From the IMG/VR virus record IMGVR_UViG_3300006754_000007: a stretch of 58,046 nt of DNA, one strand, 5' to 3'. Shown here in pieces: positions 6,943 through 58,046 of this stretch. A program made the translations under genes and the position numbers. Each line of letters opens with the position of its first letter. Positions within the stretch are counted from its first letter, which is position 1. Under the pieces are notes generated by a model. The model searched no databases. It worked only from the letters and a program-made list of their open reading frames with translations, and was not told the DNA's origin. The stretch is from an uncultured virus (IMG/VR IMGVR_UViG_3300006754_000007) (Duplodnaviria; Heunggongvirae; Uroviricota; Caudoviricetes).

Positions 6943-6950
6943 GCGCCACT

Positions 6951-7757: not shown

Positions 7758-7766
7758 CTGTCCTCT

Positions 7767-9281: not shown

Positions 9282-9520
9282 GGGGTTCTCCTGGCGTGCC
9301 CGATGAGGGATTGTTGCGTTGAGGGCATCTACCATTCCTGAGGTGTCCATGGCTTCGATGTCATCCTCTTCGAGGATGGGGTCCCACTCATCAATATCTG
9401 GGGGATGGGGGTGTTGGTGAGGAAGCGACCGCTTCTCATCCTCACCTCACGAATGTCGATAGGTCATGGCTTTGCGGTCTGACATGGAGATTCCCACAAG
9501 GTTGCTGTGCTTCTGCACAG

Positions 9521-9535
9521 ATAGGGAGCCTACCG
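9521..9535 (-). promoter_or_regulatory. Putative late promoter CGGTAGGCTCCCTAT
   Basis: Consensus match just past the portal stop codon. Confidence 0.6.
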
Positions 9536-9537
9536 AC

Positions 9538-13117: not shown

Positions 13118-13147
13118 GGCGCTGATTCAGGAGCCTGAATCAGCGCC
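13118..13147. repeat. Perfect 14-bp inverted repeat at the terminase stop codon
   Basis: GGCGCTGATTCAGG-AG-CCTGAATCAGCGCC. Confidence 0.8.
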
Positions 13148-42735: not shown

Positions 42736-43240
42736 GCTAACAAGGCTCGGGGAGCAGAAGGCTGAGGAGGGGTGTCTCCCAGGACTTTTACAGGATGCCC
42801 TCAAGGTGGGATCTGACCACTCCGTTTTTGTGCCTTGTGTGGTTTACGAGAGAGATGGCGCTCGGATTGTCTTGAACATGATGGAGGGCTACGTCTTCAT
42901 AGCCGCAGGACTTTCCGAAAGTTCTTACCTCGCCTTGGAACACGAATGCCCCTACATCCGGCAGGTGTTGTGTCACCGCCAACGTGGGGGTGTGCCTGTC
43001 TTATCCACGATTCCCGATTCAAATCTTGACGAGATACGGGGTGGCCTTCGTAAGATGATTGCGGTGGAGATCGAGACGGGTATGCAAGTTGAGGTCGTGG
43101 ACGGACCATACGCCGGGTTATCCGGTAACGTGGTACAGCTTGAAGGGGACAATGCCCATGTCTACATGGAGATGAGGTCCCTCAAAGCGATACGGTCAAT
43201 CCCCAGGACGGTTCTTCGTCCCAAAACAGCTAACGGGTAG
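42695..43240 (+). CDS. NusG/RfaH-like transcription factor
   Basis: NGN-like WVVL..VFVP..MMEGYVFI and KOW GMQVEVVDGPYAGLSGNV. Confidence 0.82.
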   Translation: MADFRDELTWVVLELTRLGEQKAEEGCLPGLLQDALKVGSDHSVFVPCVVYERDGARIVLNMMEGYVFIAAGLSESSYLALEHECPYIRQVLCHRQRGGVPVLSTIPDSNLDEIRGGLRKMIAVEIETGMQVEVVDGPYAGLSGNVVQLEGDNAHVYMEMRSLKAIRSIPRTVLRPKTANG

Positions 43241-43246
43241 GTAGGG

Positions 43247-43861
43247 ATGTCGAGTAACTATTGGTGTGGGCACAAGATTTTGGATCCTCAAGACATGGAG
43301 CGTCAGTTCTCCACGGAGGATGGCCTCGCCTACCTCGACTGTACTGGAACAGAGCACATGAGCGGGGAGCGCACAGCCCAGTTGGGGCTGGTCCGCGCCG
43401 TTCTGGACAACATCCCCCCAAGGGAAGCAGATTTTGTGGAGTTGTACTTCTTCAAGCGTGTGCGCCAGACAGCAATCGCAGACATCTTCAATGTCAGCCA
43501 GCCGACGGTGTGCTACCGACTTCAACGGGCGGCTGCTCGGATCAAGTACCTGTTGGGGCTTCCTGAGTACGACGTAGCCCAGATGCGAAAAGACCTTGCA
43601 GGGGTTCTTGGGGACCCTATTGACGTGGATGTGATGCTGGGGATGGTTGAAACCACCTGTCAGAGTGAGGTTGCTAAACGCATGGGGGTTTCCCAAGGCT
43701 TTGTGCGGCACCGTTTCCTGCGAACCATCGCTGCTTTGGAGAAGCTGCCGAGGATGTCAGCCTATGTGGACGTCTTCAAGCATGTTTCCCAAAACCTCAA
43801 CATTCTCCGAGAGGTGCAGCGAGCCAAGTGGTCTGAGCCGGTGATTTACTTGGTCTCCTGA
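43247..43861 (+). CDS. Tandem sigma70 region-4-like HTH protein
   Basis: IPPREADFVELYF..QTAIADIFNVSQPTVCYRLQRA and QSEVAKRMGVSQGFVRHR. Confidence 0.75.
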   Translation: MSSNYWCGHKILDPQDMERQFSTEDGLAYLDCTGTEHMSGERTAQLGLVRAVLDNIPPREADFVELYFFKRVRQTAIADIFNVSQPTVCYRLQRAAARIKYLLGLPEYDVAQMRKDLAGVLGDPIDVDVMLGMVETTCQSEVAKRMGVSQGFVRHRFLRTIAALEKLPRMSAYVDVFKHVSQNLNILREVQRAKWSEPVIYLVS

Positions 43862-43864
43862 TCT

Positions 43865-43879
43865 CGGTGGTCCTCTTAT
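43865..43879 (+). promoter_or_regulatory. Putative late promoter CGGTGGTCCTCTTAT
   Basis: One mismatch to the consensus, at the boundary between replication and structural genes. Confidence 0.6.
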
Positions 43880-43922
43880 TGAGCATGTCCCGTGAAGGGC
43901 TTGTTCCTTCGGAGGACACGAT

Positions 43923-44237
43923 ATGCCTAAACCCAAGCCTTCCCATCGTCGTGTGGCGATGGCTAAGCGCCTTGCTCGACGCTGGGTCGAGGCCAACGTG
44001 CGCCCGGAGTATCGGGTCACGGTCTACATGGGTCCCAAAGGACTCCGAAACCTTCCTGGACTGCTGCGATCTTTCCGGGACGGCAAACTCAAGGTTGGCT
44101 CTGTAGATCCGGTCACGGACCTTGGGATCAAGGCTGGGTTTGACCATGTCGAAGTCTGGTCTGCCGACCGTAAGGGCCTTGTCGCCTTGGACTCTTGGTT
44201 GCGCGAAGTGGGCTGCGAAACCACTGGCGTCTGGTAG
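43923..44237 (+). CDS. Hypothetical late protein
   Basis: GGAGG RBS; leader RRVAMAKRLARRW. Confidence 0.75.
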   Translation: MPKPKPSHRRVAMAKRLARRWVEANVRPEYRVTVYMGPKGLRNLPGLLRSFRDGKLKVGSVDPVTDLGIKAGFDHVEVWSADRKGLVALDSWLREVGCETTGVW

Positions 44238-44245
44238 GAGGACCG

Positions 44246-44674
44246 ATGGCTCTCGCATTGGCGCTTTCTGAGTTCAGCTATACGTCTGGGTCTGCCAGCG
44301 ATCAGTTCCTCTTTACCGTGGTCTCTGATTCGCAGGGCAACCTGTCAGTGCGGGACATTCAAAACGCCTATGGGATGGTCGTCAGCCCCTATGGTCGGAT
44401 TCCCAAGTCAGTTGAAGACGACATCCACAGCGCCATCTCTCAAGTGGAGGCCATCATGGCTGCGACCTCAGCGGTGAACGGTACTCTGACGTTCACAGAT
44501 TCCCACGAGGAAACCTTTACCTTTACCGATGCCATGACCAGCGCAACCTATCGGGTTCAGCTTTCGAGCGATGCCTTTGTTCCTCTTCGGATCAGCGCCC
44601 AAAGCACCACCACTTTTACCGTCCAAGCCGGGGCTGACTTCACAGGCACCATCGGCTTTGACGTGTTCGTATGA
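44246..44674 (+). CDS. Putative fiber-associated structural protein
   Basis: AGGAGG RBS; Thr/Ser-rich; C-terminal domain similar to the C-terminus of 45414..46991. Confidence 0.7.
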   Translation: MALALALSEFSYTSGSASDQFLFTVVSDSQGNLSVRDIQNAYGMVVSPYGRIPKSVEDDIHSAISQVEAIMAATSAVNGTLTFTDSHEETFTFTDAMTSATYRVQLSSDAFVPLRISAQSTTTFTVQAGADFTGTIGFDVFV

Positions 44675-44681
44675 GGCCCTC

Positions 44682-45410
44682 ATGAGCTTGTTTTCTAAAG
44701 CTGTCCGGGTTGCTTCAGAGCTTCCGAAAGGGTCTGAGCCAAGGCGTGATCTCCTGAAGGTCCTGAAGGAGTCTCGGGTGGTGCCCGAGAAGCTCCGGGC
44801 CAAGTACCAGAACATCGGAGACTTCGGAGGAACGCCTCGCATCCTCGCATCTTGGCACCTGGAAGTTGCGGGTCCTACCTTTGACATCAAGGATGACCTG
44901 AAGAAGCTCGGCTTGCGCTGGGAGAAGCGTAGGAAGATGTGGGGGCTGTGGGCCACGGAGTACTCACATCCGGGCTTCTCCAACAAGGATGCGCGAAGAC
45001 AGGGTTATCGCAACTACGGCGCGATTCGAGACGCCCAGAAGAAGGCTTGGCCTCAGGTCCAGAGGCTCGTCAAGGACTACAACGACAAGATCGACAAGCA
45101 GATCGATCAGAAACGGGACTTGGCTAAGGACCCCAAGGACGCACTGAAGAAGCTCTTGAGGTCCATGCGAATGGGCAAGCGGCTCGAAGAGTACGGTGTT
45201 GAGATCAGCTACGACTGGCCCAGCCGGTACTCCGTGGACGAGGCCAAGGTTCGGGTGTCCGGCAACACTTATGAACTTCGAGGCTTGATGAAGCAAACTG
45301 GTTGGCGCTGGAAATCCGGGAGCAAGGCTTGGGAGCTTTCGGTCGATGAGTACAACGCCATTTCCGCTGATTGGATGGCGAAGACCATCCGTGCATTGAA
45401 GGGGAGGTAG
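44682..45410 (+). CDS. Basic protein with two DUF5710-like repeats behind a putative targeting leader
   Basis: VAGPTFDIKDDLKKLGLRW..KMW and VSGNTYELRGLMKQTGWRW..KAW. Confidence 0.7.
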   Translation: MSLFSKAVRVASELPKGSEPRRDLLKVLKESRVVPEKLRAKYQNIGDFGGTPRILASWHLEVAGPTFDIKDDLKKLGLRWEKRRKMWGLWATEYSHPGFSNKDARRQGYRNYGAIRDAQKKAWPQVQRLVKDYNDKIDKQIDQKRDLAKDPKDALKKLLRSMRMGKRLEEYGVEISYDWPSRYSVDEAKVRVSGNTYELRGLMKQTGWRWKSGSKAWELSVDEYNAISADWMAKTIRALKGR

Positions 45411-45413
45411 AAG

Positions 45414-46991
45414 ATGGCACAACCCCCTTGGCTTGTAGACGTTCTCCAGATTGAACCTGGATCCGGTGATACCATCACCGTTGATCGGGATGCTACTGAC
45501 GGAGCTATGCAGTTCGTGGACGCGGTGGTCACTTCCGGTGTCCTGCTTCCAGCACTCGTTGGAATCCGCAATATCACGGGCGTATTTGTGGTTGGCCGTG
45601 CCGGGGACGGCGCTCCTTACACCACAGTTCAGGCTGCCCTGGATGCAATCCCCGCTGCATCTTCTGCTTTGGTGCCCTCTCTTGTCTTGATCATGCCGGG
45701 GGTCTACACCGAAGACCTGACGCTTACCCGCGACGGCGTCTACATGGTTGGGCTTGGCGGGGCCAAGCTCATCAACAGCACGGGCACGCACACCCTCACC
45801 ATCAAGGCTGAATCAACTTCGACCCCGCAGAACATTCTCCTGAAGGGTTTGGAGATCGAGTGCGATCACGCCGGGGATGCTTGTGTTTATGTGCTCGGGG
45901 CTGACACCTTTGCTTCAGGGACAGTCGATGTAGACAACGCGCCCATCACGGCAGGTGACCTCATCACTGTTGGTGGGGTTGCACTCACCGGAGTCTCTGG
46001 GACCCGGACATCGGGGTCTGACGATTTCTCGGTCAATGGGGTGACGACAGACGAGATTGCTGCCGAGATTGCGGACGCGATCATGGATAGCGCCAACAGC
46101 TTCACCAACGTGGTGACGGCGGTTTCTGCCTTGAATGTCGTGACCTTTTCCGCAGTAACCGCAGGGACGGTGGGAAATGCCATCACCCTGGCAGTAACCG
46201 TAGCGGTGCCAGGGGACTTGGCTCCTTCTGGGGCTACTCTGGCAGGGGGCGGTTCTTCTGGAAACGTCGTGGCTGACGGTGCTTTGACCATCGAGGACTG
46301 TGTCCTGGTTGCTTCAGGGGCTGGCTGCTACCAAGTCGATGCCGATACTGCGAACCACATCCGTGTTCGAGGTGGCACCTTCCGTGGGTCCTCCGCGACC
46401 TCAATCTTCCAGGCATCCAATACGGCGGCTGTGCGTCTGGAAGGCATCGAGTGGATGAACGACTTCCAGTTGGCTTACGACAACACTCTGGACCAGCCCA
46501 ACGACGTGACTTCCGAGTACCAGATTGTGAACTGCGGGCGTATCCATGACCTGTTGGCGAACTTCGTGGGGCTTGGCTCTCTCACCATCTCGAACTGCCC
46601 TGACATCAGCGTCTTGGCTCAGGATGGTGACCAGACGCTGGCTCTCAACAACTGTGTGGTGGGCGGGGCCACGACTTTGGGTACGACTACCGCCGCCACG
46701 TTCCGCAATACAGAACGAGGAACTCTCGCAGTGTCCGGTGGCACTCCCACCCTTGCGGAGTCGAGGTTCATGGGGTCACAAGCCTTCGCAGGCACGACTA
46801 CCCAGACCATCACCTTCGACATCCAGCAGCCCGATACCTCCTACACCGTGTTGATCGAGGTGGGTCCCGCTGGCGCGGGGAACGTGATGGCGGCGACGAA
46901 CAAGACGGCAACCACCTTCGATATTGAAGAGGTGAACGGACCCTTCGCCGTCACCGCAACGATCAACTACGTCATTTGTAGAGACTTGTAG
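45414..46991 (+). CDS. Putative tail or head fiber with a pectin-lyase-like beta-helix
   Basis: Cap motif PYTTVQAALDA..IMPGVYTE; Thr/Gly/Ala-rich. Confidence 0.7.
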   Translation: MAQPPWLVDVLQIEPGSGDTITVDRDATDGAMQFVDAVVTSGVLLPALVGIRNITGVFVVGRAGDGAPYTTVQAALDAIPAASSALVPSLVLIMPGVYTEDLTLTRDGVYMVGLGGAKLINSTGTHTLTIKAESTSTPQNILLKGLEIECDHAGDACVYVLGADTFASGTVDVDNAPITAGDLITVGGVALTGVSGTRTSGSDDFSVNGVTTDEIAAEIADAIMDSANSFTNVVTAVSALNVVTFSAVTAGTVGNAITLAVTVAVPGDLAPSGATLAGGGSSGNVVADGALTIEDCVLVASGAGCYQVDADTANHIRVRGGTFRGSSATSIFQASNTAAVRLEGIEWMNDFQLAYDNTLDQPNDVTSEYQIVNCGRIHDLLANFVGLGSLTISNCPDISVLAQDGDQTLALNNCVVGGATTLGTTTAATFRNTERGTLAVSGGTPTLAESRFMGSQAFAGTTTQTITFDIQQPDTSYTVLIEVGPAGAGNVMAATNKTATTFDIEEVNGPFAVTATINYVICRDL

Positions 46992-47000
46992 AGGTAAGCC

Positions 47001-48011
47001 ATGAGCAACAATGATTTCTGGGAGCAGGCCACTGGGATTTTCACTGGGGAACTCCCGACAGCCATCGACCACCACCTTTCCGAGAAGGTTGCAGGGCAGA
47101 GCTTTGACTCCGTGCGTGAGCTTACGGAGGTCTTTCGTACAACCAATGCGCTTCCTCTGAGCACTGAAGCAGGAGCCAAGGTGTCCTTTACCGGCGGCCT
47201 TGGCGCGTACATGACTTACGAAAACCCGCCTCCAAAGGGCGCTTTGGGCGAAGTGGTCAACGTCAAATCAGCCAACGGCGACATCACGCATCATGACGGC
47301 AAGGTGTTCGTGCAGTGGGACGATGGCGAGTTCCGCTCGATCCACGCAGAGCACTTGCGGCTGGCTGGTGAAGGCAAGACGGCAAAAGATTTCGCCTCCA
47401 TGTCTATGGTGGAACTCGGCAAGGCAGTTGCAAAGAAGTTCCCCAAGGCATCCTTCAATAAGAAGCAAAATATGTGGGATCTTGGAGATGGCCGTATGGT
47501 CATGTTCGGTCGGCACGGTAAGAAGACCACCATTGATGTTTGGACTTCGGATAAACGCCCCAAGAAAATCAAAATGGACATCAGCATTGGCTCCGAGAGT
47601 GATGCTGTGTCTGCTCTGAAGAAACACAAAGCCGCATCCGACCTCAAGGCGACGTTTGAGAAGATCAAGGCCCTGGCCGAGAAGCGCCCCGACAGCAAGT
47701 TCCTGAAGTCGCTGCTGAAGCAGATGGCCGACAAGGGCTTCGCTCCGACCGACAAGCAGATGGCTGTGGTCAAGAAGATCGAGAAAGAGATCGGGCAGAT
47801 GGCCACCATGCAGAAGGAACTGAAGTCGCTGGGCAAGGCCGCCAAGACGTTTCGGGTTTCCAACGTGGGTGACCTCACGGAGTTCCTCAAGGTTTCCGAG
47901 GGCAAGTTGATCCACAAGAGCACCAACGACCTGTGGTCGATGACTGCTGATGGTGACGACTTCCTGATTGAGCGCCTCTTTGACGACACTGGGGAGCCGC
48001 TTCAGGGGTGA
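47001..48011 (+). CDS. Modular virion-type protein
   Basis: SH3-like segment, two Lys-rich inserts, C-terminal LIHKSTNDLW..IERLFDD. Confidence 0.75.
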   Translation: MSNNDFWEQATGIFTGELPTAIDHHLSEKVAGQSFDSVRELTEVFRTTNALPLSTEAGAKVSFTGGLGAYMTYENPPPKGALGEVVNVKSANGDITHHDGKVFVQWDDGEFRSIHAEHLRLAGEGKTAKDFASMSMVELGKAVAKKFPKASFNKKQNMWDLGDGRMVMFGRHGKKTTIDVWTSDKRPKKIKMDISIGSESDAVSALKKHKAASDLKATFEKIKALAEKRPDSKFLKSLLKQMADKGFAPTDKQMAVVKKIEKEIGQMATMQKELKSLGKAAKTFRVSNVGDLTEFLKVSEGKLIHKSTNDLWSMTADGDDFLIERLFDDTGEPLQG

Positions 48012-48030
48012 TGATGACGGCTTCGGTGTC

Positions 48031-48045
48031 CGGTAAACCGCCTAT
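48031..48045 (+). promoter_or_regulatory. Putative late promoter CGGTAAACCGCCTAT
   Basis: One mismatch to the consensus. Confidence 0.6.
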
Positions 48046-48074
48046 TCCATTCCACTCCGTAGGAGAGTGTGTCC

Positions 48075-49109
48075 ATGCGCCCTGACCCTGCACGCATCGC
48101 AAAAGCTCATGCCCGCAAGCAGCGGGTTGGTGCGTCTGTGTCTAAGACTGCTGGTGAAGTTCGCTTCATCAAGGACCGGGGTAACGACAAGAACGAGTGG
48201 GGTTGGGGAAGCCCAGGTCCGAGTGAGCGTGAAATCACCGCTGACTTCGTTTTTGACCCTCGCTACCTGAAGCCTCTTGCCCAGACGATGCGCTCTGCCC
48301 TCATGGGGTTGGGCCATGTTGCTTCAGCACAGGACAAGTTCCTGAAGCTCAAGAGCCGCCAAGTCAGCCCGGACGGGAACCTTGGCGGTAAAGGCTACAT
48401 CCAGAAGGTCTCTGAGATGCGGCGGCAGTTGATGAACTGCGCGGAAGCCCTCTCATCCTTCACCGATACTGTGTACGACGAGATGGCTGCCCCTCACTGG
48501 GACCCAGCCGAGGACACTCTTGACCCCCGCGACCGTGACGAGGTGCGGGAGATTGTCGAGGAGGTCGATGAGATCCGTGAAGATCCTGTGGCTTGGGCTG
48601 AAGAGGACCTCACACAAACCGGCAAGGTTGCTCGTCGCAAGACGGCTGCTTGGGCAGGCATCGACTACATGCGTGGAGATGACCGTTGGACGCTGGGCAA
48701 GGCCATCGAAAAGCGTCGTGTTCGAGTTCCTTCCGGCTACAAGCTGGTTTCGGAGCCTGGGAAGGTCGTGGTGTTCAACTGGGGAGTCCTGGAGGACGGG
48801 GCCACAGCAGAGTTTCGCTTTACGCCTAACGGCACTGACATCCGGTTCATTGTTGATGGCTACGGGGACAAGAGGTCACCGGGTCTGATTCGACACAAGT
48901 GGATCGGAGACCCTGCTGATGATGCGGTGACGCTTGAGAAGCTCATCAAGAAGTACATGCTCGCGCTGACGAAGGCAGTGGCAGAGGATGAGCTTGATCT
49001 TGCAACGCAGATTGAGCGTGCCCAGATGAGGGGTCAAGAGCGGCGTGACGACCGTCGGTACAGTTCAAGTCGAGTGGCGGCAAGGTTTATGGAGGTGAGC
49101 GGTGAGTAA
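48075..49109 (+). CDS. Modular virion-type protein
   Basis: AGGAGA RBS; KTA linkers; ends SSRVAARF. Confidence 0.78.
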   Translation: MRPDPARIAKAHARKQRVGASVSKTAGEVRFIKDRGNDKNEWGWGSPGPSEREITADFVFDPRYLKPLAQTMRSALMGLGHVASAQDKFLKLKSRQVSPDGNLGGKGYIQKVSEMRRQLMNCAEALSSFTDTVYDEMAAPHWDPAEDTLDPRDRDEVREIVEEVDEIREDPVAWAEEDLTQTGKVARRKTAAWAGIDYMRGDDRWTLGKAIEKRRVRVPSGYKLVSEPGKVVVFNWGVLEDGATAEFRFTPNGTDIRFIVDGYGDKRSPGLIRHKWIGDPADDAVTLEKLIKKYMLALTKAVAEDELDLATQIERAQMRGQERRDDRRYSSSRVAARFMEVSGE

Positions 49110-51267
49110 GGACAAACCCCTGGACATTCTTGGGGAGAGCCACCTTCCGGCTGACCTCTTTACCCCTACGTTGGGGTCGAACTATGGTCTCGATGGCTTC
49201 GAGGACATGCACTACAACAGCGGTGTCCTCGAAGGCGTGCTGAACCCTGAGCTTCTCCCTGGACCTGCCGTCCCTGACGGCTTCGAGGGAATCACAGCCA
49301 ATGATATGGGTATCGCGGAGTTCATGAAGGAAGCTGACTTGGCTGACCTGGACTGGCTTGCGGATGCGGAGCAGGACCCGGAGCGCCTTCCGCAGAACCC
49401 CGTGGACTTGGCTATCCCGGAGCTTGAGGAAGCCTGGGGCGTGGATCGTAGGACAAATGGCATCAAGGTGTTTTCGACGGACCTTTCCCATGCGAGAGCC
49501 TTGGAAGAGGCATCCCCCCTTAGGAAGAACGAGAGGGAGCTTTCGGAAATCTTGGTTTCGGCCATGCGTCGTTCGGCTGCGGGCGACGACATCGAGCAGA
49601 TCATCGGCCAGTCGCGTCTTGCTGCTGGCTTGGACTCTTCTCGCATTGAGAGGGGCTTGGACATCGTCCGTAGCGAGCACGGGCTTGCTGGGAATGTCTT
49701 TGTGCGTGCGGCTGCCTACCCGTCTTACGAGAAGGGCAAGTGGAAGAAGGAGGTCTTGAAGGCCGCCCGAAATGCGGAGTACATCCTTGTTTCAGAGCAG
49801 GACTTTGGATCTACGCACATTCAGAATGGCCGCTGTACCGTCACCGGTAAGAAAGCCGTCCTGGAAGTCCCGTGGAAGGATGCTTTGGCCCACTACGGAC
49901 CCCTGCTTGGGGCTGTGGGCCGCAAGGTTGCTTCTGATTTGCCGCCCCGTGATGCGTTGAGGGCTGCTTTTTCGGCTCCCGCTACGCAGCAGGTTGCGGG
50001 TGGTGAGCGTCTTCCTCATTACAAGGCCGTGTGTGACACGGTGACCTCCGAGGAAGCTCGCGTTGCATTGGCTTCCGCAGACACCACCCCCAAGGAAGTG
50101 CATATCTCCGAGGCAGGGCTGCAACAGAGGATCTCTTCGTGGAAGTCCTCGAACATGATCGATGGCGACGTGGCTGATGAGATTCTGGCTTCGGATCTCC
50201 CCCTGAATCAGAAGTTGGATCGGGCAGTTGCGGCGGTAACTGCAAAGGCCACGGCCAAGGCAGATTTTACGGGCGCTCCGAATACGGCTGCTGAAGCAGC
50301 CCAGGCCCGCCAGCACCTTCGGCTCGTTCGTAACGATTCTGGTCGTGAGGCTGCCGAGGCGAAGTTGGAGCAGATCACCGCCTTCCGAAACACCGAGGAG
50401 TTGGATCGTCGCGTGGCTCGGGTCATCGCGGAAATCGAGAAGGGAGCACGCGGCTCCTACCTCAAGTCCTTCATCACTCGCTTGATTCCACAGAAGTTTG
50501 CCGCCCAAGCAGTGCATCTTCTTCGCCCTACCCTGGAAAGAACAGGAGCACTGGAAGATTCCAAGACAGCAACTTCTTATGATGGGCATGTATACGAGCG
50601 AGCACCTGAAGTTCGAGCCGCTATCGAGCTTTCGGACATCGACATGGCCCTTGTGAAGGCAGCCTCTGATGGTGATTCCACAGTGGGAGAAATCAAGAGC
50701 GTCCTGAAGTGGGCTTCGAGGCACATGTCCGAGGGCAGCGCAGGCCAAGAACTGTCGGAGTTGCTTCAGCACCGGTTCTCGAACCGGATCCTGAAGGCCG
50801 CTTCAGGTCTGATTCAGGATCTTCGTGGCGCTCATGAAGGCGCTGCTGGGTTCTTGTATGTTGACGCGGATGCTTACATGGCCCCCCAAGGAATCTCAGG
50901 TTGTGAGACAGGAGCCTTGCGCCACCGCGCCAACCAGATTCCTGCGGTGTTGGCGAGCGCCAGATGTCAGGGTTGTACCCGTGTTTGCACATTGTCGTGC
51001 GGCACGCGGAAGTGTGGGACCTACAACAAGGTTCTCCTGGAGGGTTCGGATCTCCCCGAGAACATCCAGTCCATCAAGAAGGCCAACATCACCGGGGCAG
51101 ACCATACGGACGCGGAAGATATTGCTTCCATGTTCAACAGTACTACCTATGACCCGGACGAGTTCAGCCTTCGGAACGCAGACTTCGAGGAGCAGGTGGA
51201 GCTTGCCCCCCTCCCCGAAAACGAGAAGATTGGCGACATCGTTTTGGGTGGCTTCCTGTGGGAGTGA
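49102..51267 (+). CDS. Large hypothetical structural protein with an internal repeat and a Cys cluster
   Basis: 721 aa, GGAGG RBS, within the late operon. Confidence 0.78.
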   Translation: MSKDKPLDILGESHLPADLFTPTLGSNYGLDGFEDMHYNSGVLEGVLNPELLPGPAVPDGFEGITANDMGIAEFMKEADLADLDWLADAEQDPERLPQNPVDLAIPELEEAWGVDRRTNGIKVFSTDLSHARALEEASPLRKNERELSEILVSAMRRSAAGDDIEQIIGQSRLAAGLDSSRIERGLDIVRSEHGLAGNVFVRAAAYPSYEKGKWKKEVLKAARNAEYILVSEQDFGSTHIQNGRCTVTGKKAVLEVPWKDALAHYGPLLGAVGRKVASDLPPRDALRAAFSAPATQQVAGGERLPHYKAVCDTVTSEEARVALASADTTPKEVHISEAGLQQRISSWKSSNMIDGDVADEILASDLPLNQKLDRAVAAVTAKATAKADFTGAPNTAAEAAQARQHLRLVRNDSGREAAEAKLEQITAFRNTEELDRRVARVIAEIEKGARGSYLKSFITRLIPQKFAAQAVHLLRPTLERTGALEDSKTATSYDGHVYERAPEVRAAIELSDIDMALVKAASDGDSTVGEIKSVLKWASRHMSEGSAGQELSELLQHRFSNRILKAASGLIQDLRGAHEGAAGFLYVDADAYMAPQGISGCETGALRHRANQIPAVLASARCQGCTRVCTLSCGTRKCGTYNKVLLEGSDLPENIQSIKKANITGADHTDAEDIASMFNSTTYDPDEFSLRNADFEEQVELAPLPENEKIGDIVLGGFLWE

Positions 51268-51270
51268 TCC

Positions 51271-54200
51271 GTGGAGTCTCGTTGCCTCAGTATTGAAGCA
51301 GTAGCACTGCGGAAGCAGGCTGAGATGTCCCATGCGGCATCCATTGCTTTGATGAAATGGCTCTCGGAGACCACCCAGCGCATGGGTGTTGCTCGCCATG
51401 TTTATGTTGTAGGCGGGGCTGTCCGAAACTTCTTGATCGACAAGCCCATCAAAGACATCGACATGGTGGTGGACTCGCTTGCGCTCAAGGGCGGCAAGGA
51501 TGCCGCCTGGGTTGCAGATGGCATTGCTCGCGCTGTGCCTACTCGAACTAATGTCATCTCTGACAGCTTGGGGGTTTCCAAGGTGTTCATCGAAGGCCCG
51601 TGGGAGCTTGATGGTCATCAACTGGAAGGGGAGGTCATCGAGATCGTCAACGCCCGCGAGGAGGTTTACGAGGTCGATCCTGAGACAGGGGATTATGTGG
51701 GGCACAAGCCCATTGAGGTGAATCCGACATCATTGGAGATCGATGTCACGAGGCGGGAGTTCACGTTCAACACGCTGATGTGGCGTCTTCTTGATGTGGC
51801 GAAGGGTCCTGACAAGGCAGAGATCATCGACTTGACTGGCTGTGGGTTGAAGGACCTGGAAAGCCGTGAGATGAGGTGCCCCCAGGACCCGGACAAGACC
51901 TTCAAGCAAGACCCGACAAGGATTATCCGTACTATCAAGTTCGCCTTCAAGTACGGCTTCAAGCTCCCTCCTGACGTGAAGGCTGCCGCGAAGCGTCAAG
52001 CCAAGGGCCTAAAGCGCATTGTCTCCAAGACTCAATCTGTTCTTCAGGTCGTTGTCTTGGATAGTCCCCAATACAAGAAGGCCCTGAAGGTAATGGATGA
52101 CTTGGGGGTGATAGATGTCCTCAAGGAGATGATGCAGGAGAACAGGTCATTCGCCTCTTTCCTTGCTGGGCAGGTTGGCAAGAAGGGAGTGGCCTACATG
52201 TTCGACCTGATGGATGTCGGACTTCCGGTTGGCTCCCCCATCTCGTTTTTGAGCGCGAAGCAGCAACGTCGCTTTCGGGAAATCACCACTCCAATGGAAC
52301 GTGATGACGCCCAAGCGTTTTTGGACATGCTTCGGCAGCCTGGGCAGGGGTATAAAGACCCCTCCTTCGTCAACAATCTTGCTGAACAACATGGCTATGC
52401 CCGACGGGAGATGAAGGACTTCATGCCTGTTGTAGACGGGCTGGCAAGAGAGCTTCTCCTGGAAAACCCTGCTTTGGGGGATTCCCCTGCTGCACTTCGA
52501 CGGCTTGTAGAGCAGCAGCTTCCTCGACGGCTTCCCCGAAGAACCGCCAGCACGGCACTGTCTTACGGCTCCCCTTCCGAAGAGGACCTGCTGAAAATGC
52601 AGGCCCCAACTCCCATATTTCCCATGGGGTTGGAGGACTTCGACTTGGAGCCTCCCCCTGGCGCGGAGGAGACCCTTGAAGAACTACAAGCATTACGGCA
52701 AGTCGCTGCGGAGGAGCGCCCGGAAGCTGAAGCGTTCGTGCGCGAGTCTGACGGCGAGATTCTCCCTCTCTTTGCTGATTTGTGGAACCGTTTTGGTGTC
52801 CGAGTTGATCAGGGATGGGCGCGAGAGATGGTCAGGCAAGCAAGGACCCATATCTTACGGTTGAAGTGGCACTTCAACCGTGCCCGCCCTCACCAAGTAG
52901 GGGAGGCAATCGGGCAGTCTTTTGTGCCCATGGATTCGCAGACGGCTCACACACCGGCTTACCCCAGTGGACATGCCATCCAAGCGTACCTCTTGGGTGA
53001 GGCTTCGAGCCGCCTGGACCCGGAGCATACAGACGAGTACTTCGACTTGGTGGGCCGCATCCTTTGGGGTCGCGTCCAGGCGGGGTACCACTGGCCCAGT
53101 GACATCTCCTATGGGGTGGAGATCGCTCAAGACATGGCTGAAGCCATGGAGCTTCCTCCCCAGTTCAGCCCTCGCGTAGCTCGAATCATGGAGCGTCGTG
53201 CTCATCACATGCGTCAACAGGTGCGTTGGGCGAAGACCTACACGGTCAATAAGGGCGACTCGGTCTGGTACGGCAAGTACAAGAACCAGCGCGGGGTTGT
53301 CCAAAGTTTCGGCATGAGTGACAAGGGCGACCCGACCATCACCGTCGAGCAACTTCCGGCTCCTTCGGCAAGGAAGCCGAAGAAGAAGTCCCCAAAGGAG
53401 TTGAACCTTTTCAAGATCCGGCCCCGCAAGGAGGACGGTAAAGATGAGGATCAGGAGAAGAAGGCTGCCCGCCGCGTTGTTGCGAAGTTCAGGGCCAAGA
53501 AGAAGGTCCCGAAAACCGATGGTTCAGGAACCACCACCATTTATGAGTACGGCCCCCGGCAAGTTGCCCAACGACACAAGGACAAGGCCAAGCGCCTCAA
53601 GGCGTTGAAGTCCTCGCTGTCTGCTTTGAGGTCCAAGGTTTCTGGGGACATGGCTTCCAAGGACCCGGAAACCAGACTGACGGCGTTGGCAGTGGCTCTT
53701 CTCGACAAGACCTACGAACGTGTGGGGAACGAGAAGTCTGCGGGTGAGCGCGGCCACCACGGCATCACCACCCTTTGTGTGGAGCACCTGACCCTGAAAG
53801 GGAAGAAAGCTACCTTCACATATGTGGGTAAGAGCGGAGTGAAGCAGAAGAAGGTGGTGGATGACCCCCAGATTATTCAGGTGCTGAAGCACGCCGTTGA
53901 AGGCAAAAGCCCCAGCGAGAGAATCCTGTGCGATGGCGACGACTGTCTGATTCGAGCGCGGCACGTCAACAGCTACCTGAAGCCTTTCGACATCACTGCG
54001 AAGGACCTTCGAGGATTGCACGCCAACGAGGAGATGCGGGTCCACCTTCAGGACATCCGTAAGAAGGGGGAGAACCTTCCTCACCCTCGCAAAGAGCGGG
54101 ACAAGATCCTAAAGGCTGAGTTCAAGGACGCGCTGGCACTTGTGGCTGTGGCGGTAGGCCATCAGGCTTCCACTCTTAGGTCCCAGTACCTCGTACCGGG

Positions 54201-56397
54201 CCTTGAGAAAGCCTACATGAAGGATGGGACTGTCATCGAGGACCTCGCAAAGCAAGCTGCACTGGAGCGTGATGCAGGTCTTCGGCAGTGGCTCATGGGC
54301 TTGCTGGGGAAATCCACTATCGTCAAAGCAATCTTTGATTGGGGCGAGCAGCGTGTAGACGGCCCTTCGGACTTCCCGAGGGGGATGGTTCCCGAGGGCT
54401 ACATTTGGCAGATAGGCGACAGTTGGTATTCCACTCTTGGAGAGGGGTTCCGCGTTCGGAAGTACCGGTACGAGAAGGATGCGGTTCGAGGAATCCGGTT
54501 TGCCCGTGTGGCTTTTCTGCTTCAGGCCAAGCAGGCAACGAAGTCCACTGGCGAACAGGAGGACGAAGAAGCCAAACGTCTTGTTCGCAACTCTCCTAAG
54601 AAGAGGCCACCCCGCGTTGATTTAGAGCGCAGGCGTGTTTTGGACGAGGACATCGAGCAAGATCCCGACCAGGACCAGGAGAAGAAGGACACCTCCCACA
54701 ACTTCAAGGACATCGCGGCTGCGATGGCCGCCCGCCGCGTAGCTTTCCGCTATCGCCAAGCGGAGGAGTTCACGGAACAGGAGTGGAAGACCTACAAGGA
54801 GAAGCATCCCGGAGCCAGCAAGGACGACCACGAGATCCGCTCCGTTGGAGGAGAGGGGGATGAAGAAGAAGCCAAGGACACCTGGGCAGAGCTTTCCGAC
54901 GACGAGAAGATGGAGGCCATCGAAGAGGGGGCCAAGGACGAGTTCGCCAAGATCAAGGAGGAGTTCCCCGACGCGACCCTCACCGAAAATGAGGTGACGG
55001 ACATGTTCTTGGAGCAGGGGGCGAACGACCAAGATCCCTTCAGTCCTGCTTCAGTGAAAGAGCGACGTGACAAGGTCCTTGGAGAGGCTGAGATGGACTC
55101 AGCCACCAACAACCTCGTTCTCTTGACTCAATCCTTTGGGGGGAAAGAGTCTAAGAAGGTTGAAGAGGCTCTTTCGGGTTTGGAGGGCGATGACCGGGCT
55201 ACGTTCTTGGACTCCTACCAAAAGGTTCAGGAAGCCTCGAAGAACCGGGACTCTGAAACTCGTAAGAACCCGAAAGCTCGTAAAGAGTTGCTGGACCTCA
55301 TCGAAAATCTCGATGAGGTCATGGAAGCCCTCGCTTCCGCGAATCCTCAGACTATTGGCGAAGTCCTCGCTTTGTTCGAGTACGCCACCAAGGTTCTTTT
55401 CAACCCGGCACTTCTTGACCCGTCAAATCCGGTATCTGAAGAAGGGGCTGCGGTTTCTGGGGAGGCCCTGACCAAAGCACGGGAGAGAAGCGGTGTCCAT
55501 GCTGCCACCGCCTTTGATCGCTACAAGGAAGCCACCCCGGAGGAACGAGCACACGCCAAGGAAGCCTTGGCGATGCAGATGGAGGACCTTCCTGAGGATT
55601 CTCCTAAGAGCATCGAGCTTCAGGGTGTCATTTCCGGCCTTCTGGCTGCATCTGCCGTTCATGACGGCGAAGAAGCAACGGGCGTTGGGCCAACGATGCA
55701 GCTTTTGGTCAAAGCCCTTGATGCGGCAGGAGAGGTGGGTGTTGGGGGAGCTTTGTTCGCCCCTGTTGGGCAGGACATGTCCACCCCGGAAGTGCGGGAC
55801 AACATTCGGAATGCCCTTTCGGGGGTCTTGGACTCTGATTGGGAGAGCCTTGTCGATAAAGACGACCCGATTTACCCCATCGCAGAGTTGTTGTCTGATG
55901 ATGATGCGGGGTTGGGCATGGAAGATCGACAGTTCTTGAGGACCGTCATCGCGGATTACCTGACCGATGAAATCACGGTTGTTGAAGAAAAGAGCCGTGG
56001 GGACCACACCAAAGAAGAGCCGACCAGCGGAGACGTGAAGAAGGACCTCAAGGAGCGCCGTAAGAAGGACAAGTCTCGAATCAATAGCGCCCTTTCAGAG
56101 GCTAAGGCCGGATTGGATCAGGCTCTCATTGACGAGGCAGAGGGTAAAGGTGAAGGCAAGGGTGAAGGCAAGGGTGAAGGCAGCGTAGGCGAGCCTCAGT
56201 CTGCTGCTAAGAAGGGTTTCTTCTCGGCATTGCTGGATATTCTCTTCCCCGGCTCCATCCCGAAGAAATGGCAGGATGTTCTGGATGAGGACGCTTCCCC
56301 TTCCACAGATAAGAAGGCTTTTGCTCACTATGATTTGAATCCGTGGGACACTTCCAAACTTCCAGCGGGACGTCATGTCCCGCTGGATGCGCGGTAG
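51271..56397 (+). CDS. 1708-aa polyprotein: CCA/poly(A)-polymerase-family nucleotidyltransferase, PAP2 phosphatase, SH3-like domain, DNA topoisomerase IB, acidic helical region
   Basis: VGGAVRN..DID, RREFTFN, QDPTRIIR; KWHFNRARP, YPSGH, RVQAGYHWPSD; RVGNE, GKSG, AKDLR, GH..LRSQY. Confidence 0.88.
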   Translation: MESRCLSIEAVALRKQAEMSHAASIALMKWLSETTQRMGVARHVYVVGGAVRNFLIDKPIKDIDMVVDSLALKGGKDAAWVADGIARAVPTRTNVISDSLGVSKVFIEGPWELDGHQLEGEVIEIVNAREEVYEVDPETGDYVGHKPIEVNPTSLEIDVTRREFTFNTLMWRLLDVAKGPDKAEIIDLTGCGLKDLESREMRCPQDPDKTFKQDPTRIIRTIKFAFKYGFKLPPDVKAAAKRQAKGLKRIVSKTQSVLQVVVLDSPQYKKALKVMDDLGVIDVLKEMMQENRSFASFLAGQVGKKGVAYMFDLMDVGLPVGSPISFLSAKQQRRFREITTPMERDDAQAFLDMLRQPGQGYKDPSFVNNLAEQHGYARREMKDFMPVVDGLARELLLENPALGDSPAALRRLVEQQLPRRLPRRTASTALSYGSPSEEDLLKMQAPTPIFPMGLEDFDLEPPPGAEETLEELQALRQVAAEERPEAEAFVRESDGEILPLFADLWNRFGVRVDQGWAREMVRQARTHILRLKWHFNRARPHQVGEAIGQSFVPMDSQTAHTPAYPSGHAIQAYLLGEASSRLDPEHTDEYFDLVGRILWGRVQAGYHWPSDISYGVEIAQDMAEAMELPPQFSPRVARIMERRAHHMRQQVRWAKTYTVNKGDSVWYGKYKNQRGVVQSFGMSDKGDPTITVEQLPAPSARKPKKKSPKELNLFKIRPRKEDGKDEDQEKKAARRVVAKFRAKKKVPKTDGSGTTTIYEYGPRQVAQRHKDKAKRLKALKSSLSALRSKVSGDMASKDPETRLTALAVALLDKTYERVGNEKSAGERGHHGITTLCVEHLTLKGKKATFTYVGKSGVKQKKVVDDPQIIQVLKHAVEGKSPSERILCDGDDCLIRARHVNSYLKPFDITAKDLRGLHANEEMRVHLQDIRKKGENLPHPRKERDKILKAEFKDALALVAVAVGHQASTLRSQYLVPGLEKAYMKDGTVIEDLAKQAALERDAGLRQWLMGLLGKSTIVKAIFDWGEQRVDGPSDFPRGMVPEGYIWQIGDSWYSTLGEGFRVRKYRYEKDAVRGIRFARVAFLLQAKQATKSTGEQEDEEAKRLVRNSPKKRPPRVDLERRRVLDEDIEQDPDQDQEKKDTSHNFKDIAAAMAARRVAFRYRQAEEFTEQEWKTYKEKHPGASKDDHEIRSVGGEGDEEEAKDTWAELSDDEKMEAIEEGAKDEFAKIKEEFPDATLTENEVTDMFLEQGANDQDPFSPASVKERRDKVLGEAEMDSATNNLVLLTQSFGGKESKKVEEALSGLEGDDRATFLDSYQKVQEASKNRDSETRKNPKARKELLDLIENLDEVMEALASANPQTIGEVLALFEYATKVLFNPALLDPSNPVSEEGAAVSGEALTKARERSGVHAATAFDRYKEATPEERAHAKEALAMQMEDLPEDSPKSIELQGVISGLLAASAVHDGEEATGVGPTMQLLVKALDAAGEVGVGGALFAPVGQDMSTPEVRDNIRNALSGVLDSDWESLVDKDDPIYPIAELLSDDDAGLGMEDRQFLRTVIADYLTDEITVVEEKSRGDHTKEEPTSGDVKKDLKERRKKDKSRINSALSEAKAGLDQALIDEAEGKGEGKGEGKGEGSVGEPQSAAKKGFFSALLDILFPGSIPKKWQDVLDEDASPSTDKKAFAHYDLNPWDTSKLPAGRHVPLDAR
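56149..56182 (+). repeat. 12-bp tandem repeat encoding GEGK
   Basis: GGTGAAGGCAAG, about 2.8 copies. Confidence 0.85.
56361..56387. repeat. 11-bp inverted repeat just upstream of a late promoter motif
   Basis: TCCAGCGGGAC-GTCAT-GTCCCGCTGGA. Confidence 0.75.
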
Positions 56398-56406
56398 GGT
56401 TCCTAT
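56392..56406 (+). promoter_or_regulatory. Putative late promoter CGGTAGGGTTCCTAT
   Basis: Consensus match. Confidence 0.6.
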
Positions 56407-56480
56407 ACACCAACCCTATGAGCGAGACTTGCACTCGCTGGAATCCCTGTCCCGACAGGAACCCCTTTTGGAGAGTCACC

Positions 56481-57539
56481 ATGGCCGACAATCTTACCCG
56501 GCACGGGGCACGGACCCTTACCGAGTCCCTTGACCGTATTGCAACCGCCGTTCAGCACAATGCTGCTGTTCTGGGACTTCCCGGCAATATCGCCCAGGAC
56601 TTCGCCTATCGGTGTGACCTGATTAGCGATGCAGTTGAGAAGACTGCGGCCTCCAACTTTCCCTCCAAGGAAGCGGATTTCGATGCGGCTTCGATTGGGG
56701 CTGAGGTTCCGGGACCCTTGGTTGATGAGCCACCGGACCCCCAGATTGATGACCACTTCACTCAGGACAAGTTCCATGAGCTTGGGGACATGGAGGAAGC
56801 CGCAGAGAAGCTCGCCTCTCTGATGGTGGAGGCTGACCATGTGCTGGAAGCAGTGATGCCGACTGTCCAGGTGAAGGGCTTTGCTGGCTTCACCAATCAG
56901 ATTCGTCGTTTGGATGAGCTATCCAACGAGATTGAGTTGCTGGAGCGGGAGCTTGAAGCAGCCACTCAGGGCTTGCTTTCACGCAAGAAGGATCTCGACA
57001 AGGAAATGAAGAAGGCCGTCCAGGAACTCAAGGACGACTACAAGGAGAACCTTTCAGCACAGGGCAATGTCGTCATTGAGCGCAAAACTGCTTTGGTGGA
57101 CGCCCTGGCTCGATTGGCGGTGGTTGCTCGTAAGCGGACCCCCCAGATGGTTCGGGAAGAGATGCTGGCGGTTCTGGCTAACGAATATGGCGCAAGCATC
57201 ATGGACCGTATCCCGGAACTTGAATCCGCTCTCCGTGAGGAGAGGAAGACCCTTACGGTGTCCTTCAAGGGCTTTGAGTTGATGGCTCATGCGCCTTCCC
57301 CAACAGCTTCCGTGAAGCAGGCTGGGATTTTGGACAAGATTGTCCGTTTCCGCGAATGGCTCCTTGGAGGTCTTCGCCGCATCCTGGCTCTGGGCACCCA
57401 AGCCACCCGCCTTTTCAAGGGTGTGGGCCAGAAGATGGATCGGGATACCAAAACCTTCTTGAAGGAGCTTGGTGCCTACGAGAAGGAAATGGCGAAGGCG
57501 GCCACACAAGAGCATGGCTTTGACTTTTTCGCTGAGTAG
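56481..57539 (+). CDS. Coiled-coil modular head or scaffold-like protein
   Basis: GGAGA RBS; KTA/KEA/KQA linkers; IGAEVPGP..FTQ motif. Confidence 0.75.
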   Translation: MADNLTRHGARTLTESLDRIATAVQHNAAVLGLPGNIAQDFAYRCDLISDAVEKTAASNFPSKEADFDAASIGAEVPGPLVDEPPDPQIDDHFTQDKFHELGDMEEAAEKLASLMVEADHVLEAVMPTVQVKGFAGFTNQIRRLDELSNEIELLERELEAATQGLLSRKKDLDKEMKKAVQELKDDYKENLSAQGNVVIERKTALVDALARLAVVARKRTPQMVREEMLAVLANEYGASIMDRIPELESALREERKTLTVSFKGFELMAHAPSPTASVKQAGILDKIVRFREWLLGGLRRILALGTQATRLFKGVGQKMDRDTKTFLKELGAYEKEMAKAATQEHGFDFFAE

Positions 57540-57550
57540 CTGGAGAGGCC

Positions 57551-58046
57551 GTGTCCAAAACTGCTGTCAACAATGTCAACTGGTAACAGAGAGCCACCGA
57601 GTTCTCTGTAGGTGATCTCGTGGGCCTTTTTGGAGCCTATGAGTCCCAGTCAGGCCGCGTAACAGCAGTCTGGCCTGCTATCGGCATGGTTGATGTCGAG
57701 ATGGCAGTCGGGAACAAGCGGTTTCCAGCCGAAGAGCTTCAGCGGTACGACAATGAAACGGGAAATGTGGTCCCACCCCAAACGGATTCAGCCGCAGTGT
57801 CCCCCACTGTTTCAGTTCCCGGAGGCCCTTACAAGGAAGCCTCTGTGCAGCGGGTTGCCGAAGCTGCTGTGCGTAGAGCCTTGTACTGGGCTTCCAAGGA
57901 TCGTCAATACCGGCTTACGGGTGCCGAGTCAGGCGGGGGTCCGATTGGCTGTCCTAAATGTAAGGACGGGACGTTGAAGAAGGCCATCTACAAGAGGCGC
58001 GACGGTGCAAGCGAGCGTCTCATGGGTTGCCCCGGTTGTCTGTTCC
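57551..58046 (+). CDS. Partial late protein (SH3-like plus zinc ribbon) interrupted by an in-frame TAA at codon 12
   Basis: GGAGAGG RBS, then MSKTAVNNVNW*QRATEFSVGD..GRVTAVWPAIGMVDVE..VQRVA..CPKC..CPGC; open to the window end. Confidence 0.7.

Follow-up and report, generated by a model that had tools for sequence, protein, structure and literature searches.

A candidate capsid-associated multi-enzyme protein from the head operon of a huge marine phage resembling phage G

What would a phage gain by joining a nucleotidyltransferase, a phosphatase and a topoisomerase in one polypeptide and encoding it next to the proteins of its head? The question is raised by a gene at positions 51271-56397 (+) of a 58,046-nucleotide stretch of DNA from an uncultured member of the Caudoviricetes (IMG/VR record IMGVR_UViG_3300006754_000007; this whole stretch is referred to as the window). 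We judge the balance to be slightly in favour of its 1708-amino-acid (aa) product, P0001, being a capsid-associated multi-enzyme cargo protein, that is, a phage "polyvalent" protein. We infer packaging, cleavage and ejection, and the case for packaging and delivery is built on genomic context. If P0001 and its relatives, which form a family common in marine metagenomes, are carried in the capsid, huge phages would bring a topoisomerase and enzymes of RNA repair into the cell along with their DNA, providing both a pre-emptive answer to host defences that cut tRNA and a way to manage a genome of several hundred kb on arrival.

P0001 comprises, in order, a nucleotidyltransferase (NTase), an acid phosphatase, a small beta domain, a topoisomerase IB (TopoIB), a small module X and two regions named C1 and C2. 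A short motif, RVAxR[YWF], recurs at the borders between modules and is referred to here as the tag; its scores in bits are from a position-specific scoring matrix (PSSM) built without P0001. Structural evidence is from AlphaFold2 (AF2) models and their predicted local distance difference test (pLDDT) values. The features of the gene, all on the plus strand, are the following.

51271..56397 (+), whole gene, 1708 aa plus stop; GTG start, GGGAG 6 nt upstream
51271..51327 (+), N-terminal leader, aa 1-19, with a weak tag copy, EAVALRKQA, ending in KQA; family alignment at the NTase border, pLDDT <50 at 1-17, helix 8-16
51328..52533 (+), putative class II (CCA-adding/poly(A) polymerase type) nucleotidyltransferase, aa 20-421; PF01743, PHROG tRNA nucleotidyltransferase, 1miv alignment, about 60 of 120 relatives
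52534..52578 (+), linker 1, aa 422-436, PRRLPRRTAS...; pLDDT <50 at 422-428, read from sequence
52579..53151 (+), predicted soluble PAP2/class A acid phosphatase, aa 437-627; PF01569, 7f18 alignment with all three motifs, no membrane-like segment
53152..53238 (+), linker 2, aa 628-656, weak tag copies PRVARIM... and VRWAKTY (10.2 bits); pLDDT <50 at 643-656
53239..53430 (+), small beta domain ("SH3-like"), aa 657-720; five predicted strands in 664-718, BLAST segments labelled SH3
53431..53496 (+), linker 3, aa 721-742, tag AARRVVAKF; PSSM 13.8 bits, pLDDT <50 at 720-741, helix 725-739
53497..54255 (+), topoisomerase IB, aa 743-995, pentad R817 K854 R914 H964 Y973; Pfam, 2f4q alignment, conservation
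54256..54495 (+), module X, aa 996-1075, small insert between KQA junctions 994 and 1087; about 22 of 120 relatives, junction comparison, modest model confidence
54496..54795 (+), C1, charged linear motif, aa 1076-1175, ending in the strongest tag, AARRVAFRY (22.7 bits); 93 relatives aligned, coverage in about 92 of 120, PSSM
54883..56085 (+), C2, aa 1205-1605, domain of about 400 aa predicted to be all-helical, towards the C-terminus in long relatives; AF2 pLDDT about 90, phmmer
56086..56394 (+), C-terminal tail modelled at low confidence, aa 1606-1708, GEGK repeat, terminal YDLNPW; AF2, motif census

The gene and its enzymes

The gene is a single uninterrupted frame of 1708 codons without internal stops; its GTG start, with GGGAG 6 nt 5' of it, follows the upstream gene, which ends at 51267. 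That the fusion is an artefact, either a chimeric assembly or a frame opened by lost stop codons in one contig, is extremely improbable. Nothing was found in favour of it, and what might be cited is that no Logan contig alone covers the entire gene; every domain junction is bridged by individual Logan contigs. The gene or parts of it occur in 20 marine sequencing runs from 15 studies, with no RNA run among them. Contigs of four runs (three studies, the possible source run excluded) tile positions 51000-56600 at likeness of at least 99% and cross all domain junctions with no indels or joints and four single-base differences. An independent IMG/VR contig from another data set spans the whole gene (9090 of 9094 bases of the overlap identical), and collinear full-length orthologs are found at 93% (P0002) and 68% identity (P0003 and loci L003-L005). 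Misassembly, which the original prediction had named as a point to be checked, is argued against by these contigs of other runs and by the full-length orthologs. Its claim that three enzymes share one frame is borne out by the unbroken open reading frame (ORF) and by Pfam matches above their cut-offs.

The Pfam-A matches comprise a PolyA_pol head domain at aa 44-202 (E 2.2e-12, 47.8 bits against a cut-off of 23), PAP2 at aa 531-618 (E 1.2e-07, 31.9 bits against 27.2), and the Topoisom_I catalytic core at aa 767-968 (E 8.3e-29, 101 bits against 23.7); in PHROGs, the N-terminal part matches tRNA nucleotidyltransferase (3e-21). The core catalytic motifs previously noticed for all three enzymes could be aligned to the solved structures 1miv, 7f18, and 2f4q, and the domain coordinates proposed at that time agree with ours. 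In the nucleotidyltransferase, GGAVRN (48-53), DID (62-64), RREFTFN (161-167), and QDPTRIIR (213-220) align to the CCA-adding enzyme 1miv at what we take to be the class II head motifs, GGxVRD..DxD, RRD, and (E/D)DxxR. By its head-domain motifs the module fits class II, of CCA-adding or poly(A) polymerase type, CCA-adding enzymes and poly(A) polymerases being matched in the PDB at similar E-values. In the phosphatase, KWHFNRARP (532-540), PSGH (565-568), and RVQAGYHWPSD (601-611) align to the soluble acid phosphatase 7f18, the alignment covering residues 5-200 of a 220-aa query (2.8e-12), and the motifs KX6RP, PSGH, and RX5HX3D are all present. R817, K854, R914, H964, and Y973 of the topoisomerase align to the positions in the bacterial enzyme 2f4q that presumably form its pentad (Arg-Lys-Arg-His/Asn-Tyr, as we take it, in type IB enzymes), and each is at least 90% conserved in 41 relatives.

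The AF2 model of aa 1-1100 shows confident domains (predicted template modelling score 0.36), with pLDDT <50 at 1-17, 422-428, 643-656, 720-741, and 995-1030. A membrane-like segment is absent from the whole protein, the highest 19-aa Kyte-Doolittle mean being 1.33. P0001 is an intact 190-kDa polypeptide, predicted to be soluble and built like beads on a string. Its "SH3-like" domain, so named in the original prediction, is predicted to be a small five-stranded beta domain (664-718) and is found at varying positions among relatives.

A modular family and its C-terminal part

A full-length search returned 151 matches, of which the best 120 were used for module counts. The nucleotidyltransferase is present in about 60 of these relatives, PAP2 in about 31, TopoIB in about 98, C1 (1076-1175) in about 92, and region C2 (1176-1620) in about 55-72, and the order is nearly always variable enzymes, then TopoIB, C1, and C2. 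Pfam searches of 21 diverse members added Fe/Mn superoxide dismutase, 2H/LigT phosphoesterases, HAD_SAK_1, RNA ligase, cREC, NUDIX, InPase, ART-PolyVal, GNAT, GGACT, C39 peptidase, DUF5661, and inteins in the NTase. HAD_SAK_1 is carried by the 1255-aa protein of locus L006 and by P0048, P0053, P0040, and P0103; it is absent from P0001 (Pfam), in which PAP2 is present in its place. Several relatives unite a phosphatase (either PAP2 or HAD_SAK_1) with a 2H phosphodiesterase, an RNA ligase, and a CCA-type enzyme. The chain can also be split: L006 has a 905-aa gene (an N-terminal part of unknown kind plus the NTase), a 176-aa gene, and a 1255-aa gene (HAD_SAK_1, TopoIB, C1, and C2), and in the uncultured phage genome LR745208 TopoIB is a separate 508-aa ORF of the same operon.

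These comparisons point to a large metagenomic family in which enzyme modules appear to be swapped freely and TopoIB-C1-C2 is kept at the C-terminal end. A fixed anchor with variable enzymes had been expected of the orthologs, and this is the pattern found, the anchor being the C-terminal C1 plus C2. We considered whether PAP2 and HAD_SAK_1 replace each other in a single phosphatase slot, and dropped the idea: they occur in 32 and 7 of the 120 relatives and never together, against about 1.9 joint cases expected, numbers too few for significance. Inteins (Intein_splicing plus LAGLIDADG_3) are found in P0019, P0038, P0042, P0052, P0098, and P0110, and those of P0019 and P0042, the two scanned, interrupt the NTase head domain.

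C1 is strongly conserved, with the consensus ATKS..EDEEA.RLVR.SPKKKPPR.DL.R..V...D.D...KD.S.N[YF]KD, and about 10 relatives end naturally straight after its N[YFH]KD.G(G). Protein ends of the type LSLNYKDTGG were considered as double-glycine leaders of C39 substrates and rejected, their spacing being unlike the consensus of such leaders. Of 121 family members, 26, P0001 among them, have a further motif of the type [YFW][DN]..PW within their final 60 aa.

The AF2 model of aa 1076-1708 (51-row alignment) has a mean pLDDT of 77; the block at about 1205-1605 is near 90 and wholly helical, and confidence is low for C1 and for the final 100 residues. With C2 alone as the query, phmmer matched 48 of 1.84 billion representatives at E<=0.001, 18 of these reaching 1e-10 or better. 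Long proteins have the matching part close to the C-terminus, a few short proteins are little but C2, and C2 appears to be specific to this protein family. Foldseek searches with the C1/C2 model gave a best E of 0.35 against the PDB and 0.33 against BFVD, with TM-scores <=0.15 among the matches listed. The top VIA-align match among 48,161 chains was a designed helical bundle (Z 6.9, over 87 residues), the remaining matches being fragments of 46-148 residues only, and the ESM Atlas yielded no usable match for residues 1076-1708. The modelled C1/C2 has no identifiable fold relative by these comparisons, which we do not take as proof of a new fold. In cultured phages, the C-terminal 633 aa have no match by tblastn at E<=0.01 and the whole gene none by megablast.

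The head operon and the border tag

In the window, the gene belongs to a tight same-strand run that follows a sigma factor gene and encodes proteins of 279, 525, 336, 346, 721, 1708, and 398 aa. The neighbours of P0001 in this run have no Pfam match, and only the 279-aa ORF has PHROG matches, weak ones to families of unknown function. Two contigs of the same phage, L001 and L002 (9090 of 9094 and 4131 of 4135 bases identical), reach past the window end and continue the run after the 398-aa ORF with, in order, a 188-aa ORF, a protease, two proteins of 424 and 249 aa, and the major head protein. The 473-aa head maturation protease matches phrog_18299 (3.7e-15) and the 290-aa major head protein phrog_2522 (7.3e-54); the very acidic 424-aa protein is taken as scaffold-like from its composition and position. 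The late operon of the original prediction can now be described more closely as a head-morphogenesis operon with a downstream protease, scaffold-like protein, and major head protein. In the 297-kb relative L006, the block comes after the portal gene (80% identical to that of the window) and one 366-aa ORF.

The head protein is 88% identical to that of LR745208 (485 kb), 49% to that of Tunturiibacter phage Tunturi_5, and 40% to that of Bacillus phage G, and head protein and protease also tie the phage, more distantly, to large mycobacteriophages. By these identities the host genome of the gene appears to be that of a phage G-like huge marine phage. The window also encodes the large terminase (13140-15047, -), the portal (9538-11244, -), a ribonucleotide reductase, a RecD-like helicase, RecA, and a clamp with its clamp loader.

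An IMG/VR scan anchored on the head protein returned 586 stretches, of which the best 80, on contigs of up to 375 kb, have head proteins 89-100% identical to that of this phage. TopoIB, C1, or both lie upstream of the head protein gene in 28 of the 31 loci with at least 8 kb of upstream sequence; several of these 31 are near-duplicates, and the number of independent cases is smaller. The distance from the end of C1 to the head protein gene is 5.2-8.5 kb (median, 6.9 kb). With near-identical contigs and those of the 68% ortholog set aside, TopoIB of the anchored loci is 46-58% and C2 25-34% identical to the window. A very conserved shell thus seems to stand beside fast-changing cargo modules; a head protein at about 90% identity against modules at 25-58%, together with shifts in composition, is the pattern expected of arms-race genes. 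Scanning 43000-58046 for promoters and terminators was uninformative: one promoter-like site was found where 3.9 would be expected, and 17 sites resembling terminators where 14.2 would be.

The tag, usually followed by L or K, stands just upstream of each module when relatives are aligned where the NTase and TopoIB begin and where C1 ends, and one of the RVAAKY type precedes TopoIB in 97 aligned relatives. In its form R[VIL]A..[YWF], 183 copies are present in the 121 proteins and 15.3 +/- 3.6 in shuffles of the same composition, an excess of about 12-fold in which the count of 183 is inflated by shared ancestry. It flanks unrelated modules (GNAT, NUDIX, C39, NTase, TopoIB, and DUF5872), and 44 of 48 looser matches, from 22 proteins, fall outside Pfam envelopes. 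In P0001, PSSM hits fall at residues 1152 (22.7 bits) and 731 (13.8 bits); AARRVAFRY (1156) and AARRVVAKF (735) are the two strongest copies, and the EAVALRKQA leader, RRTA, and RVA..RWA are weaker copies in low-confidence linkers. AF2 predicts the tags as helices within such linkers. The linker strings singled out in the original prediction are in this light low-confidence linkers with recurring family motifs.

Tags are not confined to P0001. The proteome of this phage (21,214 aa) has five hits of at least 12 bits against 0.05 expected, three of them in other proteins: a 346-aa head-block protein (48069-49109, +), otherwise unannotated, with a tag near its C-terminus (residue 331, 21.0 bits); a 200-aa unannotated protein (1307-1909, -), with a tag at residue 6 (13.1 bits); and a 510-aa protein (4467-5999, -), in which an N-terminal Peptidase_C39_2 domain (residues 11-124, 4.1e-12) is followed by two tags (13.6 bits at 173 and 11.6 bits at 256). 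The last may be another protein of the cargo type, or else a candidate for a processing protease. It is encoded within the portal/terminase block, and the relative P0097 has a C39 module inside a tagged chain. Across 645 distinct ORFs of the head-protein-anchored loci, 55 tag hits occur in 41 ORFs against 0.6 expected, at a density about three-fold higher upstream of the head protein gene (26 per 58,730 aa) than downstream (8 per 56,431 aa). A hint from L006, L004, and L009 that the tag marks protein N-termini was discarded on this larger set, in which 5 of the 55 are N-terminal, 10 C-terminal, and 40 internal. Co-folding of the head protein (17-row alignment) with P0001 1138-1182 scored 0.00 in both runs, which were made without controls, and speaks neither for nor against an interaction.

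Several observations concern the surroundings of the head genes. A NusG/KOW-like protein and a sigma-70 region-4 protein are encoded directly upstream of the head operon (window 42695-43861, +), and phage G likewise has a sigma factor near its head genes. The scaffold-like protein (L002 5648-6922) has a conserved N-terminal M.R.R[ML]TW...[KR]xA[SA] and a conserved C-terminal LWESAPDVSKFF; among 18 aligned orthologs, these ends enclose a hypervariable, acidic, repeat-bearing middle.

Packaging, cutting, and the competing explanations

Polyvalent proteins lie near phage virion genes and have been proposed to be packaged and injected, according to the main text of the paper that describes them (Iyer, Burroughs, Anand, de Souza, and Aravind 2017, PMC5512222). 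P0001 fits best in this class as there described: of the defining features that could be compared, it shares unrelated enzymatic domains in one large polypeptide (here NTase, PAP2, and TopoIB), a gene beside virion genes in a phage with portal and terminase, and domains that are fused or separate in relatives, which also have ART-PolyVal, InPase, and 2H. Frequent extras are absent. A MuF fusion is found neither in P0001 nor in the Pfam lists of the 120 relatives, and a zincin-like metallopeptidase for self-processing, a common theme of polyvalent proteins in the same main text (PMC5512222), is likewise found in none of them; one of the 120 has a C39 cysteine peptidase, and a separate PhageMetallopep gene lies at window 40402-40959. 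PAP2, CCA-adding, and superoxide go unmentioned in the main text of PMC5512222, where "topoisomerase" appears only in the title of a reference. Our literature searches found no described protein combining nucleotidyltransferase, PAP2, and TopoIB, a match for topoisomerase IB, virion, and nucleotidyltransferase having concerned eukaryotic giant viruses. The earlier statement that no such combination was known stands to this extent, whereas the general idea of phage-packaged multi-enzyme polyvalent proteins is not new, having been in print since 2017 (PMC5512222, main text). The family, in short, is undescribed in the literature searched, and the idea of a packaged multi-enzyme protein is already known. 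P0001 and its relatives further differ from polyvalent proteins in having their own C1/C2 anchor and their own border tag.

Other systems offer partial parallels. Mullaney and Black reportedly described in 1996 internal proteins of T4 with an N-terminal capsid targeting sequence that is removed after Glu by gp21 processing. In both cases a short peptide marks unrelated head-region proteins and a head protease is encoded nearby, but the T4 signal is N-terminal, whereas the putative tag is mostly internal or C-terminal, with several copies per protein. "Swiss Army Knife" proteins that repair RNA are said to have been named by Burroughs and Aravind in 2016; relatives of P0001 combine HAD_SAK_1, 2H, RNA ligase, and a CCA-type NTase, a kit for healing and sealing ends, whereas P0001 itself has PAP2 and no HAD_SAK_1. 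TopoIB, the place in the head locus, the tags, and C1/C2 appear to lie outside the Swiss Army Knife concept. Poxvirus virions encapsidate a type IB topoisomerase and a poly(A) polymerase. The likeness lies in a particle that carries a type IB topoisomerase, and perhaps also a nucleotidyltransferase acting on RNA 3' ends, for the incoming genome (putatively, in the case of P0001), and the differences in a eukaryotic virus, separate proteins, and an unrelated polymerase family. Encapsulin cargo-loading peptides mark diverse enzymes at an HK97-fold shell; the tag is likewise a short peptide on diverse enzymes, its link to a shell being putative. Phages SPN3US and phiKZ have large capsids with tens of megadaltons of internal proteins, some of them enzymes such as the virion RNA polymerase, from which propeptides are removed by a head protease (parts of PMC10052503, PMC7411985, and PMC5694885). 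They are of an unrelated lineage, their proteins are different, their cleavage motif ends in Glu, and the parts of PMC10052503 consulted report no multi-enzyme fusion of the P0001 kind.

As capsid cargo, P0001 would be directed into the assembling prohead by C1/C2, by the amphipathic helix RVAxR[YWF], or by both, would be kept in the capsid with the DNA, and would leave with it at infection. In the cell, the phosphatase and the CCA-type enzyme could heal damaged tRNA 3' ends, with PAP2 acting as an end-phosphatase, and the 2H phosphoesterase, HAD phosphatase, RNA ligase, and NUDIX modules of relatives might add to this set. A 2H phosphodiesterase, a phosphatase, an RNA ligase, and a CCA-type enzyme together cover the steps to heal and rebuild cut RNA ends, and because several family members combine these four, an RNA-repair logic is proposed for the enzymes. 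Such a pathway of RNA end healing and rebuilding is supported by parts of PMC7824862. TopoIB would relax a very long incoming genome for early transcription or replication. Finally, the head maturation protease might cut at some [KR]-x-A junctions and so release individual enzymes.

Within the scheme, cutting is the step with the least support. [KR]QA occurs six times in P0001 against 1.0 expected, and none of 300 shuffles reaches six, two of the six falling within enzyme domains (242 and 522). Border sites 15, 994, and 1087 are mostly [KR]-x-A family-wide, and the comparison of junctions suggests that module X, bracketed by two junction copies, is an insertion. The 19-aa leader ends in KQA, and the scaffold-like protein, poorly conserved outside its conserved ends, has a similar [KR]-x-A about 15-25 residues from the N-terminus in 18 of 18 orthologs, with S or A directly after it in 13; tags have no N-terminal preference. 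Of 197 distinct tags, 53 have a [KR]-x-A in the 12 residues that follow, where random 12-mers would give 28.5 +/- 4.5, the spacing peaking three residues past the aromatic residue (26 cases). The pattern is weakly compatible with head-protease cleavage at some junctions, and, supposing that P0001 is capsid cargo, we would put cutting at an even chance at best.

It may be that P0001 is packaged uncut, as one tethered 190-kDa multi-enzyme in which the RVAxR[YWF] helices dock to scaffold, shell, or DNA and [KR]-x-A has no role in cleavage; we hold this possibility at well under even. The tags are predicted helices and not extended protease substrates, their coupling to [KR]-x-A is weak (26 of 197), and relatives often start or end naturally at the same borders, so that fusion and fission alone could explain the conservation of junctions. 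In SPN3US, 42 head proteins are reported uncut (parts of PMC10052503). What speaks for cutting is the over-representation of [KR]QA, the retention of [KR]-x-A at three module borders and at the N-terminus of all the scaffold-like orthologs, and a head maturation protease gene three genes downstream. It is also conceivable, though unlikely, that P0001 is never packaged and acts as a cytoplasmic late multi-enzyme for tRNA-end repair and DNA topology, the head operon providing strong transcription only, C1/C2 being regulatory or oligomerising, and the tags being linkers or interaction helices. What speaks for this is that the substrates of all three enzymes are ordinary cytoplasmic ones and that large phages commonly encode a stand-alone tRNA nucleotidyltransferase outside their head operons; 74 phage records match the NTase or TopoIB part only. 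Against a purely cytoplasmic role, the position between portal and protease/head protein is kept across the clade in 28 of 31 loci, the tag occurs on other head-locus proteins with its bias toward the region upstream of the head protein gene, relatives carry ART-PolyVal and InPase, domains first defined in polyvalent proteins, and enzyme content turns over fast beside a head protein kept at about 90% identity.

The capsid-cargo reading, which we prefer, has several points to contend with, some of which equally favour a cytoplasmic role. In the window itself, portal and terminase are 40 kb away on the opposite strand. P0001 lacks by Pfam both the MuF domain and the zincin peptidase, the usual marks of published polyvalent proteins, and searches of the PDB and BFVD and with VIA-align gave C2 no recognisable fold relative that would link it to capsids. 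By tblastn at E<=0.01, no cultured phage carries the C-terminal module, so that there is no virion proteome to borrow, and the head loci of phage G and Tunturi_5 have no tag at >=9 bits. Unlike the T4 targeting sequence, the tag has no N-terminal preference (5 of 55, against 7.9% of positions), and a [KR]-x-A at one fixed spacing follows only 26 of 197 tags. The head proteases known from giant phages cleave after Glu, a motif other than [KR]-x-A (parts of PMC10052503).

A more far-reaching form of the capsid-cargo reading, offered tentatively and with the expectation that it may well be wrong, is that huge phages of one marine and freshwater clade load interchangeable enzyme cassettes into the capsid by means of a portable address, the RVAxR[YWF] helix plus C1/C2, that the head protease cuts at [KR]-x-A, and that a tRNA-repair kit and a topoisomerase are delivered with the genome. 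If this is true, it would amount to a programmable cargo-loading code for phage heads that evolves far faster than the shell. The border tag and the C1/C2 tail would provide testable handles on cargo choice, and could be used to load foreign proteins into large phage heads.

An analogous arrangement may exist in a phage that can be grown. In Tunturi_5 (L007; cultured, 309 kb), positions 6502-10590 encode a 1362-aa "MutT/NUDIX hydrolase", and an 827-aa "DNA ejection protein" is also encoded upstream of the head maturation protease; the 1362-aa protein may be a comparable large enzyme-bearing virion protein. Directly downstream of the P0001 gene, the 398-aa protein (window 56343-57539, +) has a listed start that overlaps the end of P0001 by 55 nt; an ortholog aligns from residue 41 only, and the true start is probably later. 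The L004 ortholog of this protein matches a 364-aa protein (3439-4533, -) at 55% over 53 aa.

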